Of a DNA stretch of 64,000 nt, positions 134-10,415 are shown piece after piece. Origin of the DNA: Escherichia coli. GTDB lineage: Bacteria > Pseudomonadota > Gammaproteobacteria > Enterobacterales > Enterobacteriaceae. The notes beneath the pieces are model-generated. The model was not told the origin of the DNA. It searched no databases and saw only the letters and a program-made list of their open reading frames with translations. Position 1 is the stretch's first letter. Each line of letters starts with the position of its first letter. The DNA is taken from the NCBI RefSeq assembly GCF_002854065.1, contig NZ_CP024147.1. The stretch is one strand, 5' to 3'. The translations under genes and the position numbers were made by a program.

Positions 134-1500
134 GCCTGAACTCCTTCTGGCGTCACCTGTTCAATATGGAAATCAAAACGCAGAGCGTCGTTGGCTTCAA
201 TCAGGTGATATATGGAAAATTCGTATACCGGCCCGCCCTGGATATCAGAAGGGGAGAACGGGAACGCCAGGTTGCCTGCGGTAGCGATGCGGTTTTCATA
301 GCCGTAGTGCAGCATGGTAGAGCGCACCAGCGAGCAAACGCTATTGGCAATTTCCTGGGTCGGTGCAACTACATCAAGGACAATCCCCAGCTCATGCCCG
401 GCAGTTTGCATCGGTTCATGGTCGCCCATCACCCCGTTTTTACCGTACAGGTGGAAAATGATGCGAATGCTGTCATCGTCTAACGACAGGTTACGCGAAA
501 CGCTGGTTTTGACTTCATCGATGATTTTATCGATCCCGGCGATCATGATCGGGTCGCGCGTTCCGGCGATGGTCAGACAGCGGAAGCCCACCCGTCGCGC
601 ACCTTCCAGTTTCAGGGCATACGGCGTTTCTTCATGCTTAGAACCGCTGACGTACACTTCGCCGTCATTGACTGCTTTAAATGTGCAGCCTTTCAGGTTC
701 AACACGCCGCCAGGTCCTGGCAGGAAGTAGGGATCGGATTTCTCATACAGTGTGTGTGCAGCTGCTGACGTTTCGGTAAATTTACGCTTCGGATTAAATG
801 TCTTCAGCGTAAAGCCGTTGTCATCAATGATGCCCATCGCACAGTCAGAGCCTGAGCCGGGCGTTGCGGCGATTGCTGCGCACTCAAGGATTTTCCCACA
901 ATGCAGCGCCAGACCTTCATCAAAGCCTTGCATGATCGGTAGCGCAGCAAAGCAGGCCGGGTCGTAAGCGCGCCCACCCAGCACCACTTGCGCGCCTTCT
1001 TTCAGCGCCCGCTGGAAGGGTTCGATGCCCATTTGCGCGACGATATACGTACTTTCGTCAATCGCGTCGTGGGTTAACGGCGGGACAAAATCCAGCGCCG
1101 TGATTTTGCCGTTATCCAGCGCCTGGTGGACGATGGCTTTGTCAACGTCTGCCGGGATCAACGCCATCGAGAACGAGAGGTGCTCTTCCTGGGCAATCTC
1201 ATGAATTATTTCTCGGCACCACTCCAGGTGTGGTGCGGCACCAGAACCGCCAGCCGTTCCGATCACCACCGGTATATTATTTTGCACGCCTGCGGTGATC
1301 ATATAGCGCAGATCGCGCTTGACCCCTGCGCGATCGGTAAACGGTTTGCCTGCCCCGAGGTAGTGGGGGCCTGGATCGGAAGAGCCTGCATCAACGGCGA
1401 TCAGATCGGGCGATTCTGCCATCGCTTTACGGAAGCTCTCTTCCGGGAATCCATACCCGAGGATTGCCGTTGGCGATAAGACTTTAAAAGAACGAGCCAT
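130..1500 (-). CDS. uncharacterised 456-aa soluble protein co-operonic with methylaspartase (tentatively DUF1446/AtuA-like; family recalled, not searched)
   Basis: Long ORF MARSFKVLSPTAILGYGF...; start 4 nt downstream of the mal stop on the same strand; no hydrophobic TM stretch. Confidence 0.75.
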   Translation of the reverse strand: MARSFKVLSPTAILGYGFPEESFRKAMAESPDLIAVDAGSSDPGPHYLGAGKPFTDRAGVKRDLRYMITAGVQNNIPVVIGTAGGSGAAPHLEWCREIIHEIAQEEHLSFSMALIPADVDKAIVHQALDNGKITALDFVPPLTHDAIDESTYIVAQMGIEPFQRALKEGAQVVLGGRAYDPACFAALPIMQGFDEGLALHCGKILECAAIAATPGSGSDCAMGIIDDNGFTLKTFNPKRKFTETSAAAHTLYEKSDPYFLPGPGGVLNLKGCTFKAVNDGEVYVSGSKHEETPYALKLEGARRVGFRCLTIAGTRDPIMIAGIDKIIDEVKTSVSRNLSLDDDSIRIIFHLYGKNGVMGDHEPMQTAGHELGIVLDVVAPTQEIANSVCSLVRSTMLHYGYENRIATAGNLAFPFSPSDIQGGPVYEFSIYHLIEANDALRFDFHIEQVTPEGVQA

Positions 1501-1503
1501 TTG

Positions 1504-2745
1504 TTAATCCTTAGCCTGCAACAGCGCGATAGTACGATTCATTTCGTTGAAGACGATATCGAGGCCTTCGTCAAAACCCATCCCTGGTTTTACCAGCATA
1601 CGCATAGGGCGAGCGGCAAGGGCGACGTGGACACAGGTGCGGGCACTAACATCAGTTTCATTGCAGGTGCCGCCCTGGTACGCTTCCATGCTGTGGCTGT
1701 TGCAGTAAAGAACCGCATCGACGATGTTGTGAATACTTCCAAGATCCGGGGTTTTGATTTGCACCATGTGACAACTGGCGGCATCAGTGAAATCAACAAT
1801 ATCCTGGTAGGTGTTACACCATTCATCGGCCACAATTTTCACGCCGGAACCGAGGCGCGTCAGCTCTTTGGTAATCGCGGTCAGCAGGCGAATTTGGTCG
1901 GGCTTGTTACCGGCATCGACCGGCCCTTCAATGTAGAGCGGCAGGCCTTGCGCTTCTTTTTCCAGGCTGGCGATGTATTGCGCACAGCGAAGCGGATCCA
2001 TATCGAAGATCAGACCGATAGTGCCGTATACATCGATGTGCAGGGTAGGGTGGTAGCGTGCGCTGGTGCGCTTGCTCAGAATGCGATCCGACAGCCAGCG
2101 GACATATTCGCGCAGTTTTTCACCTTTAAAGCCCAGCTTCTCTTCGACGTTATTAATCAGCGCATGGGGCAGCACGTCGATGCCCTTAAGGATCATCTTA
2201 TCGACGGCGATATATCGATCGTCGCCGCTCTGGCCAAATAATGGAATGGATTCCGCCACGTGTGGCAACTGCCATTCATCACAGACCACTTCAGTTTTCA
2301 GACGGCCGGTTGCCAGCGCAGTAGCATCAAGCAGCGCCTGTGATAATCCGTAGCGCACGGCGGTATGCAGCAAGTTGCCGTCAATACGCAGTTTGTCGAA
2401 GAAACGGGCATTCGGCAGGAAAGCATCCACATCGCGGCCTACCAGTAATGGCTTGATATGGTCGTTGAGGAACGGAATAAAGTGCTCTGCGAGGAACAGT
2501 GGATCGCGACCACCTGCCCCGGAATACTGTACGGCAGCACAGTCACCTACAGCGACCGCGCCGTTTTCCAGAATCAACTGTACCGATACGCACTCCCCGG
2601 CCTGACGAACGGCGTTAAACCCCTGTGTTACCGGCTCCCCGGTATAAAAAAAGCCGTCATGACCCGCTCCGTTTTTTATCGCCTGCTGGTCATCGAAATA
2701 GAATGAGGAGTAGCCAGCGGTGAACAGAGCCTGTTTTATTTTCAT
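1504..2745 (-). CDS. mal: 3-methylaspartate ammonia-lyase (methylaspartase)
   Basis: 413 aa; MKIKQALFTAGYSSFYFDDQQAIKNGAGHDGF...CAAVQYSGAGGRDPLFLAEHFIP...VQIKTPDLG closely resembles clostridial methylaspartase as I recall it; start shares one nt with the glmE stop. Confidence 0.9.
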   Translation of the reverse strand: MKIKQALFTAGYSSFYFDDQQAIKNGAGHDGFFYTGEPVTQGFNAVRQAGECVSVQLILENGAVAVGDCAAVQYSGAGGRDPLFLAEHFIPFLNDHIKPLLVGRDVDAFLPNARFFDKLRIDGNLLHTAVRYGLSQALLDATALATGRLKTEVVCDEWQLPHVAESIPLFGQSGDDRYIAVDKMILKGIDVLPHALINNVEEKLGFKGEKLREYVRWLSDRILSKRTSARYHPTLHIDVYGTIGLIFDMDPLRCAQYIASLEKEAQGLPLYIEGPVDAGNKPDQIRLLTAITKELTRLGSGVKIVADEWCNTYQDIVDFTDAASCHMVQIKTPDLGSIHNIVDAVLYCNSHSMEAYQGGTCNETDVSARTCVHVALAARPMRMLVKPGMGFDEGLDIVFNEMNRTIALLQAKD

Positions 2746-4190
2746 TATGGTCTTTCTATTAATTTACTGTGGGATACAGCATTGATGTCATCTACAACCA
2801 TCTGGAATGTCGGTTGGCGTCCTTCAAAGCGTGCGCGTTCCGCGACGTAATCGTGGTGGAGGTCGAGAATATCTTTTGGCAATGGAACGGCTCCGGCTTC
2901 CAGTACGCGTATCGCGCCGGTGTTGTCACGGACCGGAAGAATATTGCCCGCGTTGCAGGCGGCTGGCGCAAACGGCACATCCAGTACGCCCGCTTCAAAT
3001 GCCAGCACCGTACCGCGCGCAATATCACCATTACCCAGTTCGAACACTTTATTCAGTACCGCGCGAACCTCGCTCTTAATCAGTTCAATTTCCAGTTCAA
3101 CCGCAGGGCACGGCGGGAATTTCTGCTCATTGACCATGTTGAGCATCTGGCGGGAGGCTTTCAGCCCCTGAATGTTGGCAGCGGCAGTCGGGATACCCCA
3201 GGCTTCGTGCGGACTTTTGGTGATGACTTTGGTGGCACCAGACATCCCCGCGACGGCTGCGCCCCAGGAGATAATAGCGAACGCTTTCGATTCGTCTTCC
3301 GGAAAGCCGCCCATCCACTGGTGAAACACGGTACTCAATTCATAGTCGGTATAGCCATAGCTCTGAAAGTATTCGTGTGCAAGTTCACGCAGAGACTGGA
3401 TCGCCGCAACATCCTGCGTCAGGCTGCCGACCTGGCCATAACCAACGGTGATAGATTTCACACCCTGTTCCAGTGCCAGCAAGCCTTCGATTATCGCGAT
3501 AGAGTGCGAGATAAACGGCGGGATCAGCGTACCCGTTAGTGGGCCAAACGGTTCGCGGTTGATGCGGATCCCGTGTTCTTCATACATCCCCATTAAACGG
3601 TCGCAGTACTGCCAGTCGCGGATCGATTTTTCCAGCGTTACGCGTTTGGCATACGGAATGTTGTAGGAAATGCCACCGCCTTCATAACTGGTAAAGCCGC
3701 TGGCCATTGAGATTTCAGCCAGCAGACGCGCATCTGGCGTGCCGTGGCGGATCTGTAGCGGTTTTTGCAGGGTTTCGGTGAGGCGACGGCAAGCTGCGAC
3801 ACCATGGTTAACTACCGGTAAACCGTTCAGTTTAGAGGTTCCGGCTTCGATGGATTTTTTAATCCCTACAGCCGCTTCTTCGTACCGATTCAGACGGGTA
3901 TATGCATCGATGGTGCTTGGCAGCAGATCGCACTCTTCTTGTAGTGTTTTCAGCAGTTCGATGTGTTCGTCCATCAGCGCCACACCTGCGCGCGGTTGGC
4001 TAAGGGTTTTACCTTCCTTGTCTGCTTTCAGCAGCGCAAGAGAGAAGCGTTTATGCTCAGGGATGGTTTGTTGGTATTTAACGCCATCTTCAAAGATTTC
4101 AACATCCTTGCCGGTTTCCCAGGTTTTCAGTACCTGTTGCCGCTCGGTCATGAATTCGTCATGGGTTAATTTCTTATTTCGAAGTTCCAT
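2745..4190 (-). CDS. glmE: glutamate mutase E (epsilon, catalytic) subunit
   Basis: 481 aa, MELRNKKLTHDEFMTERQQVLKTWETGKDV...; size and N-terminus match methylaspartate mutase E chain; sits between glmL and mal. Confidence 0.88.
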   Translation of the reverse strand: MELRNKKLTHDEFMTERQQVLKTWETGKDVEIFEDGVKYQQTIPEHKRFSLALLKADKEGKTLSQPRAGVALMDEHIELLKTLQEECDLLPSTIDAYTRLNRYEEAAVGIKKSIEAGTSKLNGLPVVNHGVAACRRLTETLQKPLQIRHGTPDARLLAEISMASGFTSYEGGGISYNIPYAKRVTLEKSIRDWQYCDRLMGMYEEHGIRINREPFGPLTGTLIPPFISHSIAIIEGLLALEQGVKSITVGYGQVGSLTQDVAAIQSLRELAHEYFQSYGYTDYELSTVFHQWMGGFPEDESKAFAIISWGAAVAGMSGATKVITKSPHEAWGIPTAAANIQGLKASRQMLNMVNEQKFPPCPAVELEIELIKSEVRAVLNKVFELGNGDIARGTVLAFEAGVLDVPFAPAACNAGNILPVRDNTGAIRVLEAGAVPLPKDILDLHHDYVAERARFEGRQPTFQMVVDDINAVSHSKLIERP

Positions 4191-4208
4191 TGATTGCAGC
4201 CTTAATTG

Positions 4209-5597
4209 TTATAGGGTTAAGCATTGAATACTGGTGCGCGCGGCGGCCAGCGGATCGACTCTGGCGACGTTTGCCAGCAGTGGTAATAGCCCCCGGGAAT
4301 CGCGGTAATATTCAAATTCGGTCGGTAAGAGAATGCGTTTACCGTCGTCGTTTAACTCGCGGTATTTCAACCAGTGATGCATATCGAACTGACTGGCACG
4401 CGAGAGCCATCCGCCGGATCCGACGACTTTACGCACGGTTGTCAGGTCACGTCCCATCTGTAAATCGACATTGCCGACGCAGGTGCAGACCTCTTTTTTG
4501 GTGCCCGCATGTCTTTCGGTGGCATAACCCACACACAGTCCGGCCAGGACGGTATCGAAATATTTCTCTTCTGCATTTGCGGGTAAGTAGTCGGGATGAG
4601 CGACTAGATGACGGAGGTAATGATAAAAAGCGTCCAGCTGTGCGGGTTGCTGAGCAAAATTCACATTGACTAACTCTTTCGCACTTTCACCAACCACCAC
4701 TGCCGAGACGCGCATTCCCAGATCGCCTTCCACCGTCCGTTTTACGAAGGGTTCCGGTACGCCGTGTAAAACGGTGTCGGGCGAGAGCGTGTTGGCACAG
4801 GCGGAATAAACATCGGTGGTTGCGCCGCCCATGTCGATCAGCATGAACTCTTTCCAGCTGTGATCGACGTTACTGATTGCCTTGACCAGTTCAAAGACCG
4901 TCCATGGTGTCGGCATTGGTTCTTCGCCTGTTTTATCAACAATGACATCCAGCCCTTTCCCTTTAACGATGCGTTTAAGGAATATGTCGCAAATAGCCTG
5001 GCGTGCGGCTAAAGGGTTCGGATGGTCAAGATCGGGCAGAACATTGTCGACGATGGTCAGGTCTTTATGCCCGAGGATCTCCTGCACCTCGTCCTGAATA
5101 TCCCGGTTTCCGGCATAAATAATGGCGCAGTCGAGTTTGGATTCTGCCAGCACACGGGCGTTATTCAGTCCGTAGCTTTCTTCTCCGCCGTCGGTGCCGC
5201 CGGTGAACAAGAGAATATCGGGCTGCGTTTCTTCCAGTGCCTGGATATCACGGCGGTTCAGCTTGTAGGCGTAATATTGCGCAATTTTAGCACCCGCAGA
5301 GTGAGCGGTTACTTTCGCGGTTTCCAGGGTGATAGAAGGCACCAATCCCATTGCGGCAACCGCCAGCCCACCTTTGGCAGAGGAGGAATACTTCAATGCA
5401 ACCTCACCGCTGTTTAACAGGGGGAGGGCATTATCTACGTTTAACACCTGGTTCAGGCTGGAGAAAAACCCCTTCGCCAGATGATGGGTGGTGGTTGGGG
5501 TCAGTACGTGGTTAACCAACGTTAACGCGTCCCCCTCCCGGGTGAAGAGGGCTGCTTTGGTCCACGTCGATCCAATATCGACAGAGACGATTTGCAT
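4209..5597 (-). CDS. glmL: glutamate mutase accessory protein (MutL/GlmL-like, ATPase-fold putative reactivase)
   Basis: 462 aa, [18 protein letters not shown]... (actin/hexokinase-like N-terminal phosphate motif); located between S and E subunit genes as in clostridial mutS-mutL-mutE. Confidence 0.8.
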   Translation of the reverse strand: MQIVSVDIGSTWTKAALFTREGDALTLVNHVLTPTTTHHLAKGFFSSLNQVLNVDNALPLLNSGEVALKYSSSAKGGLAVAAMGLVPSITLETAKVTAHSAGAKIAQYYAYKLNRRDIQALEETQPDILLFTGGTDGGEESYGLNNARVLAESKLDCAIIYAGNRDIQDEVQEILGHKDLTIVDNVLPDLDHPNPLAARQAICDIFLKRIVKGKGLDVIVDKTGEEPMPTPWTVFELVKAISNVDHSWKEFMLIDMGGATTDVYSACANTLSPDTVLHGVPEPFVKRTVEGDLGMRVSAVVVGESAKELVNVNFAQQPAQLDAFYHYLRHLVAHPDYLPANAEEKYFDTVLAGLCVGYATERHAGTKKEVCTCVGNVDLQMGRDLTTVRKVVGSGGWLSRASQFDMHHWLKYRELNDDGKRILLPTEFEYYRDSRGLLPLLANVARVDPLAAARTSIQCLTL

Positions 5598-6046
5598 CAG
5601 ATAGCCTCTTCAAGAATACGAGTATCAACGTCATGACGTTGGTTGATATCGTGGGCCATCAGCTGACAAACATCTTCTAAGTCATGACTTGGGGCAAAGA
5701 CGCGATCAAATCCCATCTCTTTGAATTTGGTTTCCACGTCAGCGAAGTCATGTTTTCCGACCACCAGGTTACCGCCCACATAGAGCAGGATGTCCCCCAG
5801 TCCACGCTCGATGCAGCGTTCGCGCATGCCCAGACAGTCGATATCGCCATGCCCATAGATAGAGGAGACGACAATCGCGTCAGCGCCAGTTTCAATGGCC
5901 GCATCAATATATTCGTCCTGGCTGACCATTACGCCCAGATTAATGACTCTGAAGTCGTGGTTGCTAAAAACGCGGTCCAGAACTTTATTGCCTACTGCAT
6001 GGCAGTCCGCGCCAATAACGCCAATCACAAGTGTTGCTTTCTTCAT
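5597..6046 (-). CDS. glutamate mutase S (sigma, cobalamin-binding) subunit; symbol left blank because glmS/mutS clash with unrelated E. coli genes
   Basis: [23 protein letters not shown]... carries the DxHxxG B12-binding signature; start moved from track ORF 6109 to ATG 6046 with AAGGA RBS 7 nt upstream; stop shares one nt with glmL start. Confidence 0.85.
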
Positions 6047-6592
6047 GGGTAATCCTTTGTAAGACAGAGAGTAAAATAAGTTACACACGTCGTATTTATG
6101 GCCGTTCATAACGGCACAGGTTTAATATCACAGGAGTGTCTTTATCTGACCGTAATGTTGCAATTGATCTATTTTCAAAATGTCTTTCGGGAAATGATTG
6201 TTTAAAGTGTGTTTTTAAATTCCCATGTTAATTCAGTATGTTATGTCAACTAATGTCATGAATGTTAAATTTTTAAAATTAACTTGATTTAATGTATTGA
6301 GATAATTGTGATCTACTTCTAATTTGCATTTTAGTGATATGGGTTTAGCCATGAGTAAATGCATTTCATAAAATTTAAGTCGAATTTCACTGCAATTCAT
6401 CTCTGCTTAATGTAAAAATAATGTTGAAAATAACAAATGGTTAATGATTCATGCGAATTATGACGTTAGTTAGCTCTTTTGATTTTTCGTAAAAAAGAGA
6501 GGTACATGAAGGTGCTACCAGTATGAGTAACGTTAATCAAAGGTTTTATTACGTCTGGCAATAACGCAGGCCATTTTCGCGACTGGGTGGAT

Positions 6593-7015
6593 TTAATCAG
6601 TATAATCCTCATACAATATTTCAGGATTAACTGAACCGTTAACCGGGTTTTGGTGTTGAAATTTAGAAATGGCGGAGTCAATCAATGAAGACAGTATCGA
6701 AAAAATAACTGTGTCAGAACTAATTTCAATTAATCCTTCTCGTTGTTGACCAAAAAAGATATTTATCTTGATTTCATTTGTACTACGGCAATCAATATGT
6801 AGTAATTTTTGATCGCTGAGATTTTCTGTTTCATAAATGTTTTTGGCGATAGTCGGATGTATTGATGCCAGACATCTGCTCAGATAAGCCAGATCCTTTA
6901 GGGAACACCCCGCTGAGTAGAGGATGTCAGAGAATTTTTGTGTGTCAACTGTTGTCTCTGAAGCGTATGTTGCATTGACAGGAAGGGTGTTGAAAGAGAT
7001 TTGAGATGGGATCAT
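6593..7015 (-). CDS. hypothetical acidic 140-aa protein, unknown function
   Basis: Intact ORF in AT-rich DNA; net negative charge (about 17 D/E vs 9 K/R); no TM segment; GGAAAG about 9 nt upstream of ATG; co-directional with the 314-aa ORF 81 bp upstream. Confidence 0.6.
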   Translation of the reverse strand: MIPSQISFNTLPVNATYASETTVDTQKFSDILYSAGCSLKDLAYLSRCLASIHPTIAKNIYETENLSDQKLLHIDCRSTNEIKINIFFGQQREGLIEISSDTVIFSILSSLIDSAISKFQHQNPVNGSVNPEILYEDYTD

Positions 7016-7096
7016 TATTTAAATCTTTCCGTGAGTAATAAAAATTAATCCCCAGGCATTGTTTAACAATATTTGCCATAGGGGATATATAGAAAA

Positions 7097-8041
7097 TTAA
7101 AGTATTTTATTGGCTTCGGTTAACTGATCTATAACCAGTGCCAGATTGGTAAACATTTTGAAAAAGCGATACTGGCTCGGAATATCTCTTTCAAAGACGA
7201 AACATTCAAGGTCATTGTTTGAAAAATAAAGGACTAGTGTTGCTGATTCGTCAGGGAAAACATGGAAATGTATCTGGTTACCAGAAGGAGGATAGTCCAG
7301 AAGAAGGGTATCTTTGCCCGTCACATACCTGTTGTTGTCGTGGACGCTACGCTCACACTTCATCAGAGGTGTCAGGATACTCATGTATTCATCTGATGTT
7401 AATTTATTAAAATCATCATTCATTTTAAAGAAACGATAAAGTAACAGTACATCCTCTTGCGTAACCGGTTCGTTTGTTTTTAGAGGGAAATAAGCGGGAA
7501 CCAGAAGATGAGGTTCTAATCTATTTTGTTGAGCGCTATAACTGAATTTGAACATAAATTCCGGATCGCTCATCAATTGAGCGACATAATTATGCCTGGC
7601 TTCGAAAATTTTAATTTTTATCAGGTTAAATAAGTCTGTTTCGTCATCCTGTATTAAAAGACATTGGCCATAGCAGCCAGGCTTTTTTTCATTATAAGCA
7701 GAAACGGTTATTCTGTCAGAGGTGTCAACGTTATATTCAAAAGCCAGATAGTGACCTTCTTCATCGCGATTTGTTTCCAGGTTATTTAAATTCATCACAT
7801 GAAGTGTTTGCAATGCTGATTCAATGAGCTGTTGACTCTCTGAGGTAAATGTTTCGCGCTGCGTTGTATAAAGTGTATCAATTCCAACGACTATCCGATG
7901 TGGGTCAAGGATGGCGGCAATCATCTTTATTACCTGCACAGTCACGGGTGATGTCATTGATTCTTTATCTGTTTTTAGAGAATCATTAGATGGCCAACCT
8001 GAGAAGCGATTGACAGCCGAACCGATATTATCAGGACTCAT
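7097..8041 (-). CDS. hypothetical 314-aa protein, unknown function
   Basis: Intact ORF in AT-rich DNA; GAGG 8 nt upstream of ATG; Ser/Thr/Asn-rich N-terminus; no TM segment, P-loop or HEXXH motif; not recognisable as any K-12 protein. Confidence 0.7.
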   Translation of the reverse strand: MSPDNIGSAVNRFSGWPSNDSLKTDKESMTSPVTVQVIKMIAAILDPHRIVVGIDTLYTTQRETFTSESQQLIESALQTLHVMNLNNLETNRDEEGHYLAFEYNVDTSDRITVSAYNEKKPGCYGQCLLIQDDETDLFNLIKIKIFEARHNYVAQLMSDPEFMFKFSYSAQQNRLEPHLLVPAYFPLKTNEPVTQEDVLLLYRFFKMNDDFNKLTSDEYMSILTPLMKCERSVHDNNRYVTGKDTLLLDYPPSGNQIHFHVFPDESATLVLYFSNNDLECFVFERDIPSQYRFFKMFTNLALVIDQLTEANKIL

Positions 8042-8495
8042 AGCAGCAACCTCATTGTAATCAAGCGAGGCGCTGAGCGTACTCGGCTATAGAAAAACTA
8101 ACTTGCAAAAATCGCTCATTTTTCATTTATCAGGCGAAAGTGGTCTCTGTACACTCAGAAACAATCACTCCCGCTAAGTCATACCTGTTTCATCGATACA
8201 TTTAAGTGATTATTACTAATGAAACAATAACATAACGGGCTTACGGTCGGTGCTCATAAAGGCAACAATCAATTAACTTTGATAAAAATATGTTATGTAA
8301 AATAGCAACAAATTGGCTACTCTAATCAATTGGTATTATAAAAAGTGGATAAGGCGGTTCTGTTAAATAAAATACTGGTTTTTTATCTATACCTTTTCAT
8401 TGTAATAATTGTGTTGCATAAATATTTCACAATAAATTAACAATAAAATCACCAATGATCTATGGTTTATACATAATTAACATATTTGGTTGGTT

Positions 8496-8509
8496 TTGAT
8501 ATAAATCAA
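8496..8509 (+). promoter_or_regulatory. FNR-type site TTGAT-N4-ATCAA in cydA upstream region
   Basis: Perfect palindrome ttgatataaatcaa; cydAB is known to be FNR/ArcA controlled. Confidence 0.6.
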
Positions 8510-8846
8510 TTTTTAATTCTTGAAAAAAATCTGCAAAACACGATAAATTGTCGTAGATCAAATTGATGAGATCGTGACAATTTCGCTATAAATTGATCAC
8601 TGTCGAAAAATGCAAATTTGCTCAATAAAAACCTGTTTATTGTAAGGATTTTGCGGCGTAATATAATTACGGGATCAATTTGGTTTATTCATTAACATAT
8701 TTGTAACTTTTTTATCATTGTCTTTTCCTCTTTTGATGAAATGGCAACGATAGGGGCGAGCAAATAATTTTGTATTGGGGCATGCGTGTGACCCTTTCTA
8801 ACGGGGTTCACTCTCGGAGTCTTCATGCGATGAGCAAGGAGTCATG

Positions 8847-10415
8847 ATGTTAGATATAGTCGAACTGTCGCGCTTACAGTTTGCCTTGACCGCGATGTAC
8901 CACTTCCTTTTTGTGCCACTGACGCTCGGTATGGCGTTCCTGCTGGCCATTATGGAAACGGTCTACGTCCTTTCCGGCAAACAGATTTATAAAGATATGA
9001 CCAAGTTCTGGGGCAAGTTGTTTGGTATCAACTTCGCTCTGGGTGTGGCTACCGGTCTGACCATGGAGTTCCAGTTCGGGACTAACTGGTCTTACTATTC
9101 CCACTATGTAGGGGATATCTTCGGTGCGCCGCTGGCAATCGAAGGTCTGATGGCCTTCTTCCTCGAATCCACCTTTGTAGGTCTGTTCTTCTTCGGTTGG
9201 GATCGTCTGGGTAAAGTTCAGCATATGTGTGTCACCTGGCTGGTGGCGCTCGGTTCAAACCTGTCCGCGCTGTGGATTCTGGTTGCAAACGGCTGGATGC
9301 AAAACCCAATCGCGTCCGATTTCAACTTTGAAACTATGCGTATGGAGATGGTGAGCTTCTCCGAGCTGGTGCTTAACCCGGTTGCTCAGGTGAAATTCGT
9401 TCACACTGTAGCGTCTGGTTATGTGACTGGCGCGATGTTCATCCTCGGTATCAGCGCATGGTATATGCTGAAAGGTCGTGACTTCGCCTTCGCTAAACGC
9501 TCCTTTGCTATCGCTGCCAGCTTCGGTATGGCTGCCGTTCTGTCTGTTATTGTTCTGGGTGATGAATCCGGCTACGAAATGGGCGACGTGCAGAAAACCA
9601 AACTGGCTGCTATTGAAGCTGAGTGGGAAACGCAACCTGCGCCTGCTGCCTTTACTCTGTTCGGCATTCCTGATCAGGAAGAGGAGACGAACAAATTTGC
9701 GATCCAGATCCCTTACGCGCTGGGCATCATTGCAACGCGTTCCGTGGATACTCCAGTTATCGGCCTGAAAGAACTGATGGTGCAGCATGAAGAACGCATT
9801 CGTAACGGGATGAAGGCGTACTCTCTGCTCGAGCAACTGCGTTCTGGTTCTACCGACCAGGCGGTTCGTGACCAGTTCAACAGCATGAAGAAAGACCTCG
9901 GTTACGGTCTGCTGCTGAAACGCTATACGCCAAACGTGGCTGATGCGACTGAAGCGCAGATTCAACAGGCAACCAAAGACTCCATTCCGCGTGTAGCGCC
10001 GCTGTACTTCGCGTTCCGTATCATGGTGGCGTGTGGCTTCCTGCTGCTGGCAATCATCGCGCTCTCTTTCTGGAGTGTCATCCGCAACCGCATTGGCGAG
10101 AAAAAATGGCTCCTGCGCGCCGCGCTGTACGGTATTCCGCTGCCGTGGATTGCTGTAGAAGCGGGCTGGTTCGTGGCTGAATATGGCCGCCAACCGTGGG
10201 CTATCGGTGAAGTGCTGCCGACAGCTGTGGCGAACTCGTCACTGACCGCAGGCGATCTCATCTTCTCAATGGTGCTGATTTGCGGCCTGTATACCCTGTT
10301 CCTGGTGGCAGAATTGTTCTTAATGTTCAAGTTTGCACGCCTCGGCCCAAGCAGCCTGAAAACCGGTCGCTATCACTTTGAGCAGTCTTCCACGACTACT
10401 CAGCCGGCACGCTAA
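8847..10415 (+). CDS. cydA: cytochrome bd-I ubiquinol oxidase subunit I
   Basis: [28 protein letters not shown]...; 522 aa from second ATG (AAGGA RBS 6 nt upstream). Confidence 0.97.

Follow-up and report, generated by a model that had tools for sequence, protein, structure and literature searches.

Genes and features of the sucD-cydA interval

The window, that is, the whole 64-kb stretch of DNA that was analysed, is part of an E. coli chromosome. It is 100% identical to strain CUWW06 and, over 5500-9500, 98.9% identical to O157:H7 strains; in CUWW06 and O157:H7, which have the same haplotype, the segment lies between sucD and cydA in place of mngRAB. The left part of the window carries minus-strand genes for glutamate fermentation by the methylaspartate pathway (an AtuA-family gene, methylaspartate ammonia-lyase, mutase E, glmL and glmS), with a GC content of about 0.53 and ending at 6046. 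A low-GC stretch (0.27-0.43) occupies about 6050-8800 and contains two minus-strand genes for hypothetical proteins of 140 and 314 aa; the DNA across 8001-8800 is AT-rich (GC 0.27-0.36). The main features at the cydA end are as follows.

6593-7015, minus strand: 140-aa orphan gene, the first of a low-GC two-gene module (open reading frame, annotated hypothetical)
7097-8041, minus strand: 314-aa orphan gene, divergent from cydA (open reading frame, GC 0.35-0.39)
8042-8125, minus strand: putative leader or upstream sequence belonging to the 314-aa gene, including a GAGG Shine-Dalgarno sequence (CCTC on the plus strand, 8050-8053); conserved in carriers of the gene only
8126-8205, no strand: variable spacer separating the module from the conserved cyd control region, with the proposed breakpoint at 8181-8206 (BLAST ends, multiple alignment)
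8206-8846, plus strand: predicted cydAB control region of the type common to non-K-12-type E. coli and other Escherichia (shared by class B, defined below, E. whittamii, E1V33, MOD1-EC7003 and contig L012)
8847-10415, plus strand: cydA, cytochrome bd-I subunit I (annotation; 99.0% identical to K-12 cydA)

A preliminary description of this DNA had placed the start of the 314-aa gene 805 bp upstream of cydA. This was borne out: the minus-strand frame at 7097-8041 is annotated as hypothetical in CUWW06, and the spacer to cydA (8042-8846) measures 805 bp from the annotated ATG at 8847, or 802 bp if the alternative in-frame ATG at 8844 is used. The same description had equated the gene start with the beginning of the K-12 mngB-cydA spacer. 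The lengths are indeed alike, the K-12 spacer being 846 bp (given as 847 bp in PMC3946193), but the likeness is a coincidence of length and not collinearity, as detailed below.

Haplotypes of the cydA upstream region

A survey set of 5426 complete E. coli genomes was searched with the 805-bp spacer, and three classes were distinguished. The numbers of genomes with each marker were as follows.

314-aa gene marker: 1135 genomes
Methylaspartate mutase E marker: 1131 genomes
K-12-specific distal 382-bp marker: 3182 genomes (59%)
351-bp alternative cassette, marker of class B: 1107 genomes

The three haplotype markers (1135 + 3182 + 1107) add up to 5424 of the 5425 genomes having the region, so the haplotypes appear to be mutually exclusive and exhaustive. 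Class B includes MSHS 133, R4, ATCC 25922 and UPEC129, and in its layout a TPR-protein gene, with or without mngRAB, is separated from cydA by about 1.5 kb of unannotated DNA. The control region of the window type is found in about 41% of the E. coli genomes.

The sample of other species was small and consisted of E. whittamii, Escherichia sp. E1V33 and Escherichia sp. MOD1-EC7003 together with one contig (L012); E. albertii, E. fergusonii and E. marmotae were outside it. A genome scan with a conserved 20-mer gave five loci, two of which were an unrelated MAG of Bacteroidia and a 'Citrobacter' contig that is probably mis-binned. Contig L020, a long-read assembly full of frameshifts, was left out.

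Position of the boundary

The non-carriers of the 314-aa gene that were compared with the window were class-B E. coli (1107 genomes, with the TPR-protein gene at this place), E. whittamii and Escherichia sp. E1V33. In class-B genomes, DNA about 90% identical to that of the window extends from 8181/8206 to cydA. The glutamate-fermentation DNA of E. whittamii and E1V33 is 88-89% identical to window 1920-6452 and 1146-6343, respectively; after this island comes a stretch of 320-440 bp, and the match to the window then resumes at 95% identity. The corresponding BLAST ends fall at 8181 (class B), 8201 (E. whittamii) and 8206 (E1V33).

Similar results were obtained when identities were calculated segment by segment. 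In non-carriers, identity to the window is 24-52% left of 8205; it rises to 73-83% at 8206-8245 and to 91-94% at 8246-8299. The stretch next to the 314-aa gene, 8042-8125, is 87-100% identical among carriers vs 24-33% in non-carriers, and at 8126-8205 even the carriers are just 52-76% identical, with 25-52% for the non-carriers. In an alignment of eight sequences, the conservation common to all lineages begins at GTGATTATTAC (8206) and is followed by a near-invariant block at 8246-8299.

On the basis of the match ends in class B and the other Escherichia, the segment identities and the carrier-only conservation of 8042-8125, the boundary is placed at about 8181-8206, 641-665 bp upstream of cydA. 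The preliminary description had proposed that an island-to-core junction lies within 8042-8400, inside the long cydAB regulatory region. A junction of variable and conserved DNA is indeed found in that interval, but the unit that abuts it is the orphan module and not the glutamate-fermentation island. The junction also falls at the outer, distal edge of the cyd control region rather than inside it, with every predicted control element on the cydA side.

It had further been suggested that a divergent promoter for the 314-aa gene may share this region. A strict sigma-70 scan of 7900-8900 gave no minus-strand match at 9/12 or better, and the best minus-strand matches of a relaxed scan reached 7-8/12, none of them convincing. 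The stretch 8042-8125, where the GAGG Shine-Dalgarno sequence sits 8 nt before the ATG of the 314-aa gene, shows the carrier-specific conservation given above; this would fit a leader or a promoter-proximal region of that gene.

A two-gene orphan module next to cydA

The unit that abuts the cyd region is a low-GC two-gene orphan module (GC 0.30-0.39 vs about 0.53 in the flanking genes) that is separable from the glutamate-fermentation island. Within E. coli the two are linked, the 314-aa gene being present in 1135 of the 5426 genomes and methylaspartate mutase E in 1131, and within Escherichia all four combinations of presence and absence are found. E. whittamii and E1V33 have the island and lack the module; contig L012 has the order sucD, 258-aa gene, 314-aa gene, 804 bp, cydA and lacks the glutamate-fermentation genes. 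The 140-aa gene adjoins the 314-aa gene in every carrier seen.

The module is restricted to Escherichia and consists of lineage-limited orphan genes. Pfam and PADLOC scans of the 140-aa and 314-aa proteins gave nothing above threshold, and an HMMER search with the 314-aa protein against 1.84 billion representatives returned fragments of the same protein and no other relative. The 314-aa protein forms just five 90%-identity clusters, all at least 64% identical, and its AlphaFold2 model is poor (mean pLDDT 44). An Rfam search of 5900-9000 at E-values up to 1 gave zero matches.

The 314-aa homologue of contig L012 shares 64% protein identity with that of the window, and its dS is 0.52 vs 0.30 for cydA, which is itself 94.1% identical between the two. 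Between these two copies dN/dS is 0.43, with zero indels over 314 codons and the frame intact; in Escherichia sp. MOD1-EC7003 the gene carries a frameshift. The alternative cassettes found in class B, E. whittamii and E1V33 show mutual homology (63-66%), and the lineages that lack the module keep a remnant of the 3' part of the 140-aa gene at about 57-60% identity, a weak homology (57-66% identity, E-values of 1e-4 to 1e-11).

These observations bear on whether 8181-8206 marks the point at which a mobile cassette of two genes recently entered an intact region upstream of cyd. The GC content of the module against that of its flanks and the orphan genes without a detectable family would agree with such an event, as would an imperfect inverted repeat (6180-6203 / 8159-8182; 24 nt, 75% complementary) that brackets the module. 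The position of this repeat does not match the indel, however, since the homology of E. whittamii reaches 6452, well beyond the left arm, and no convincing direct or terminal inverted repeats at the indel edges emerged from the repeat search. Annotation and the repeat search likewise revealed no integrase, transposase, tRNA or target-site duplication at the boundaries, so that the features of a classical genomic island boundary (integrase, tRNA att site, flanking direct repeats) are lacking here. The module moreover occurs exclusively beside cydA, and it occupies the same site, at a spacing of 804-805 bp, in a lineage whose cydA is 94% identical and whose 314-aa gene is deeply diverged; decayed remnants of the 140-aa gene in non-carriers also argue against a recent arrival. 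A recent insertion is thus considered distinctly unlikely. The deep divergence of the L012 copy, the frameshift in MOD1-EC7003 and the 140-aa remnants in non-carriers instead suggest that the module is more likely to be old at this site and to have been lost or degraded in several lineages.

Predicted control elements on the cydA side

The region between the boundary and cydA was scanned for ArcA boxes, FNR sites and promoters and was aligned with K-12. The following elements were assigned.

8246-8299, no strand: distal conserved block containing a pair of predicted ArcA boxes (PWM scan; identity of 91-96% across all window-type lineages)
8400-8483, no strand: predicted ArcA-box cluster, counterpart of K-12 cydA2, in a hypervariable patch (PWM scan)
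8496-8509, no strand: predicted FNR site 1, the perfect palindrome TTGATATAAATCAA
8520-8549, plus strand: predicted P1 equivalent, with -35 TTGAAA (8520-8525), an 18-nt spacer and -10 TAAATT (8544-8549) (promoter scan)
8548-8561, no strand: predicted FNR site 2, TTGTCGTAGATCAA, two mismatches to the consensus, aligned with K-12 TTGTTCTCGATCAA
8640-8667, plus strand: strong promoter-like TTGTAA-16-TATAAT (scan 10/12), within a block conserved in all lineages
8692-8709, minus strand: predicted ArcA box of 20.5 bits at -155, counterpart of K-12 cydA3 at -152 (PWM scan)
8774-8846, plus strand: 73-nt leader, invariant (100% identical in K-12, class B, O157, E. whittamii, MOD1-EC7003, E1V33 and L012)

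The ArcA matrix was built from 115 of the 128 published boxes (PMC3798270 Table S3), and it reproduces the published scores for the three K-12 cydA sites. Seven boxes were predicted in the spacer; positions are relative to the cydA ATG.

8262-8279, minus strand: 14.0 bits, -585
8279-8296, plus strand: 17.3 bits, -568
8400-8417, plus strand: 13.9 bits, -447
8426-8443, minus strand: 20.5 bits, -421
8437-8454, minus strand: 14.5 bits, -410
8466-8483, minus strand: 16.2 bits, -381
8692-8709, minus strand: 20.5 bits, -155

All seven reach at least 12 bits, vs 0.45 expected, and four reach at least 15 bits, vs 0.06 expected from shuffles of the 805 bp; three of the four boxes of at least 17 bits in the whole 64 kb lie in the cydA spacer. 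The K-12 boxes at -590, -418/-407/-387 and -152 coincide with the ChIP-seq regions cydA1, cydA2 and cydA3, the sites mapped by ArcA ChIP-seq (PMC3798270 supplements). The predicted distal pair at 8262-8296, 56-90 bp inside the boundary, is the conserved positional counterpart of K-12 cydA1 (-590). Class B, E. whittamii, E1V33 and L012 all have the -568 box unchanged, and Salmonella lacks a distal box. The pair shows no homology to the K-12 cydA1 site, and one of its boxes points the other way; functional equivalence is therefore only presumed. The K-12 distal site itself is not retained as sequence, there being no significant homology upstream of about -420. Around the cluster, 8400-8495 is only 62-80% identical between lineages that are otherwise about 85-99% alike in adjacent segments.

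A perfect FNR palindrome at 8496-8509 had been reported in the preliminary description, and it proved to be the sole zero-mismatch TTGAT-N4-ATCAA match in the 64-kb window. It aligns with K-12 TTGATATTTATCAA, which lies at -53.5 of P1 in K-12 (PMC3688515 Table 1, FNR ChIP-seq). The predicted P1 -10 aligns with TAAATT of both K-12 and Salmonella, and with the FNR spacing of K-12 the P1 start would be near 8556. The sequence at 8548-8561 would be the second FNR site, reportedly described by Cotter 1997 and Govantes 2000; the centres of sites 1 and 2 are 52 bp apart, and both align to K-12 sites. The promoter-like sequence at 8640-8667 is a candidate for a downstream cyd promoter, one of P2-P5.

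The proximal region aligns with K-12, Salmonella and another enterobacterial contig. In Salmonella and that contig sucD adjoins cydA, and the homology to both E. coli alleles ends at about -380. The elements conserved in this alignment are the ArcA-like sequence at -381, FNR-1, the P1 -10, FNR-2, the TTGTAA-16-TATAAT block, the ArcA-like sequence at -155 and the leader. The RNA fold of the leader (8760-8870) is no more stable than that of shuffles (z 0.61), indicating that conserved structure does not account for its invariance. The ArcA, FNR and P1 assignments are sequence predictions, and we infer occupancy from them.

Divergence of the K-12 control region

BLAST with 7-nt words found homology to K-12 only from window position 8422 rightward. 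Identity between K-12 and the window is about 68% at 8422-8585 and about 93% at 8585-8700; the alignment is scrambled at 8700-8773, and from 8774 on the sequences are essentially identical. Expressed relative to cydA, which is 99.0% identical, the values are 100% for -73 to -1, 71.5% for -380 to -74 and 39.9% for -641 to -381. The switch from patchy identity to 100% at 8774 is the right-hand end of the divergent K-12 allele.

The 805-bp spacer might nevertheless be collinear with that of K-12, the island having replaced mngB and the DNA upstream of it and the K-12 distal elements being literally retained. The similar lengths of the two spacers (805 vs 846 bp) and the ArcA boxes at similar distances from the ATG in both would be accounted for in this way. 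Against it, the K-12 homology found with 7-nt words stops at 8422, and 8206-8421, aligned both globally and locally with the K-12 segment at the equivalent position, scored at shuffle level (z 0.8-1.1), as compared with z 11-14 for the positive control, 8422-8585 vs K-12; a hidden homology between the K-12 distal region and 8206-8421 is thus not significant. The low identity at -641 to -381 and the confinement of the K-12 distal 382 bp to the 3182 K-12-type genomes point the same way. A collinear spacer is refuted by the BLAST, shuffle-controlled alignment and identity data, and we give it hardly any credence. K-12-type genomes lack the 314-aa gene, and K-12-like sequence does not run on into it.

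The allele type was then compared across lineages. Over -385 to -1, identity among the window, class B, E. whittamii and L012 is 93-98%, and K-12 is 76-77% identical to each of them; Salmonella is at 66% from both allele types. Other Escherichia have a cydA that is 94-97% identical to that of the window and a control region that is 93-94% identical; for K-12 the corresponding values are 99% and 76%. Left of the spacer, the identity between K-12 and a class-B strain declines from about 96% near sucD-mngA to 84% and then to 74% at the 3' end of mngB.

A different placement of the junction, at about 8774 or at 8422-8470, would follow if a foreign donor had brought the island together with its own cyd region by homologous recombination, K-12 being native. 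Such an origin would be compatible with the 100% identity to K-12 from 8774 and the patchy match upstream, with the majority status of the K-12 haplotype (59%) and with the equal distance of both types from Salmonella. It is at odds with the presence of the window-type region in the 1107 E. coli genomes without the island, and with its presence in E. whittamii, E1V33, MOD1-EC7003 and L012, in which the divergence of the region tracks that of cydA (93-98% vs 94-97%). K-12 is equidistant from all window-type lineages, and its divergence extends left into mngB, which points to the K-12 block as the one that was replaced. An imported window-type region is accordingly judged very unlikely.

Since the other Escherichia species carry the window type, the K-12 version is the outlier. 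The K-12 allele therefore appears to be derived and the window type ancestral, as far as three named Escherichia lineages and one contig can tell. On the simplest reading, the K-12 haplotype would bear a divergent block reaching from inside mngB to -73 of cydA, which was either imported from an unsampled relative or is an old allele kept by recombination. The preliminary description had proposed to locate the junction by alignment with the K-12 cydA upstream region. Because K-12 itself bears the divergent allele, such an alignment would misplace the junction: homology starts only at about 8422-8470 and near-identity at 8774.

Interpretation of the locus

Taken together, we favour the following explanation, with a probability of roughly 0.8 for the whole. 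The 8181-8206 boundary would be the right-hand edge of a presence/absence polymorphism of the two-gene orphan module, which in the window strain adjoins the glutamate-fermentation (methylaspartate) cluster. To its right, 8206-8846 would form a complete cydAB control region, in the form common to about 41% of E. coli and to other Escherichia. The module would leave cyd control uninterrupted, with P1, both FNR sites and the ArcA clusters (-570, -420/-380, -155) all on the cydA side, and K-12 would carry a switched allele. K-12 seems non-collinear because the K-12-type haplotype is a highly divergent allele upstream of -73 and on into mngB.

In the established logic of cydAB, FNR acts as a repressor at P1, and silencing by H-NS is relieved by ArcA-P. 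The distances of the predicted control elements from the ATG match those of the mapped K-12 sites, and with all elements on the cydA side at K-12-like distances, cydAB of the window strain should respond to oxygen by this logic. The junction would then be an ordinary edge of the hypervariable sucD-cydA interval that leaves cyd control intact: a case of ordinary genome plasticity, and a useful caveat on K-12 as a reference.

The caveat concerns a well-studied operon. Cytochrome bd-I is important for the growth of E. coli at low oxygen, the gut included, and the regulation of cydAB by ArcA, FNR and H-NS is a textbook case that, to our knowledge, was worked out entirely on K-12 DNA. The K-12 control region on which this regulatory literature is based is a divergent allele that is absent from about 41% of E. 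coli genomes; in these (O157:H7, ATCC 25922 and UPEC129 included) the control region shows 24% divergence across the proximal 385 bp and is unrelated beyond. Owing to this divergence, site coordinates from K-12 are not transferable by alignment to window-type strains, even though the predicted architecture is preserved.

Both alleles have a strong predicted or known ArcA site about 570-590 bp upstream of the ATG despite their unrelated distal halves. One could imagine that two deeply divergent cydAB alleles exist in which selection preserves or rebuilds, at a constant spacing, a distal element for ArcA/H-NS anti-silencing, and that the same DNA controls the 314-aa gene; we regard this as unlikely. 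If it were true, the 314-aa orphan gene would be coupled to oxygen limitation in window-type strains, and O157:H7/B2-type and K-12-type strains could differ in microaerobic cytochrome bd expression.

Relation to known systems

The cydAB region matches an already-known phenomenon and would be a new example of it: switched intergenic regions, or horizontal regulatory transfer, in E. coli (Oren et al. 2014, to the extent described in the Piggy paper, PMC5890482). As in such regions, the downstream gene is conserved (cydA 99.0%, leader 100%), the upstream alternatives fall below about 90% identity, being 71.5% identical or non-homologous, and the switch, at -73, is sharp. The case fits the 'upstream' and not the 'gene-pair' definition because the upstream genes differ too (mngB, the TPR-protein gene or the 314-aa gene). 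Unlike in those regions, the binding-site architecture is mainly preserved across the alleles. A literature search gave no description of a switched cydAB region and nothing specific on mngB-cydA variation, the island or the orphan-gene locus tags.

The regulation of K-12 cydAB was reportedly the subject of work by Cotter in 1997 and Govantes in 2000. Five promoters, two FNR sites, three ArcA regions and H-NS are described for K-12 cydAB (PMC3798270, PMC3688515, PMC3946193). The window is predicted to have the same order and spacing, with distal ArcA boxes (-570/-590), a cluster (-420/-380), FNR-1, P1, FNR-2, ArcA at -155 and the leader, and it is AT-rich, as expected for H-NS binding. It differs from K-12 in being just 76% identical over -385 to -1 and unrelated farther upstream, and in its predicted distal ArcA site, whose sequence and arrangement are both unlike those of K-12. 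K-12 alone has a REP-containing stretch by mngB with the RpoD-binding promoter TCTACA-17-TATATT (PMC3946193), which is absent from the window.

The window carries the strain-specific sucD-cydA segment of O157:H7, at the 98.9% identity given above and with the same gene order. At its cydA end this segment differs from a classical mobile island in the absence of an integrase, a tRNA and direct repeats; it is common to other Escherichia at 88-90% identity, and its cydA-proximal end is the separable orphan module.

Invariant and hypervariable DNA upstream of cydA

The 73 nt preceding the cydA ATG (window 8774-8846) were 100% identical across all Escherichia lineages examined, including a lineage whose cydA differed from that of the window at a dS of 0.30. 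Few positions within the same stretch were changed in Salmonella. The predicted RNA fold of this leader was not more stable than that of shuffled sequences. The constraint may reflect an sRNA target, a translation-control target or a promoter.

By comparison with adjacent segments, which were ~85-99% identical in the same lineages, window 8400-8495 was hypervariable, with 62-80% identity between lineages. The patch lies immediately upstream of FNR-1, the perfect FNR palindrome at 8496-8509, and overlaps the central cluster of predicted ArcA boxes; the boxes within it were kept despite the change in the sequence around them. Only four predicted ArcA boxes of at least 17 bits were found in the 64-kb window, including the following one.

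6410-6427: predicted ArcA box, ATGTAAAAATAATGTTGA, 18.7 bits, upstream of the glmS-led glutamate-fermentation operon

This predicted box hints that the anaerobic glutamate-fermentation pathway might be controlled by ArcA.

Orphan gene pair adjoining cydA

6593-7015, minus strand: 140-aa orphan gene
7097-8041, minus strand: 314-aa orphan gene

The two genes (window 6593-8041) are adjacent, low in GC and found in Escherichia only, and the pair adjoined cydA in all chromosomal contexts examined. No family was detectable for either gene; confident structures were not obtained for the encoded proteins, and neither protein matched a defence system. The 314-aa gene is fast-evolving (dN/dS 0.43), and its copy in Escherichia sp. 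MOD1-EC7003 is a pseudogene. An imperfect inverted repeat of 24 nt, 75% complementary, lies roughly either side of the module (6180-6203 and 8159-8182), and it is probably a chance match because the breakpoints in E. whittamii and E1V33 do not coincide with it.

The MAG contig DXKH01000067.1, labelled 'Citrobacter sp.', matched window 6671-8693 at 97.6% identity; it probably represents mis-binned E. coli DNA.

The interval in genomes lacking the 314-aa gene

Class B comprises the 1107 E. coli genomes (including ATCC 25922 and UPEC129) with a TPR-protein gene at the site and without the 314-aa gene. In these genomes, the TPR-protein gene and cydA are separated by ~1.5 kb of AT-rich DNA that bears no annotation.

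L003 5314-6641: unannotated class-B DNA
L004 and L005 5100-6641: unannotated class-B DNA

Part of this DNA was homologous, at 65%, to sequence on the left side of the orphan module in L012, a contig carrying a homologue of the 314-aa gene.

When K-12 mngB (L001 5400-6612) was compared with that of the class-B strain R4 (L017), identity fell from ~96% to 84% and then to 74% toward the 3' end, far under the normal within-species level. On this comparison of sequences, the drop shows that the divergent K-12 block reaches into coding sequence.

Minor observations at other loci

Outside the window, strain CUWW06, whose DNA is 100% identical to the window, carries an IS1 element (L002 567-1264) between sucD and the LysR-family gene located at the leftmost edge of the glutamate-fermentation segment; IS1 was not annotated at the corresponding position in O157:H7 PV15-279. 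A Bacteroidia MAG contig (L007) had a single sequence in common with the window, the exact 20-mer GTCGAAAAATGCAAATTTGC.
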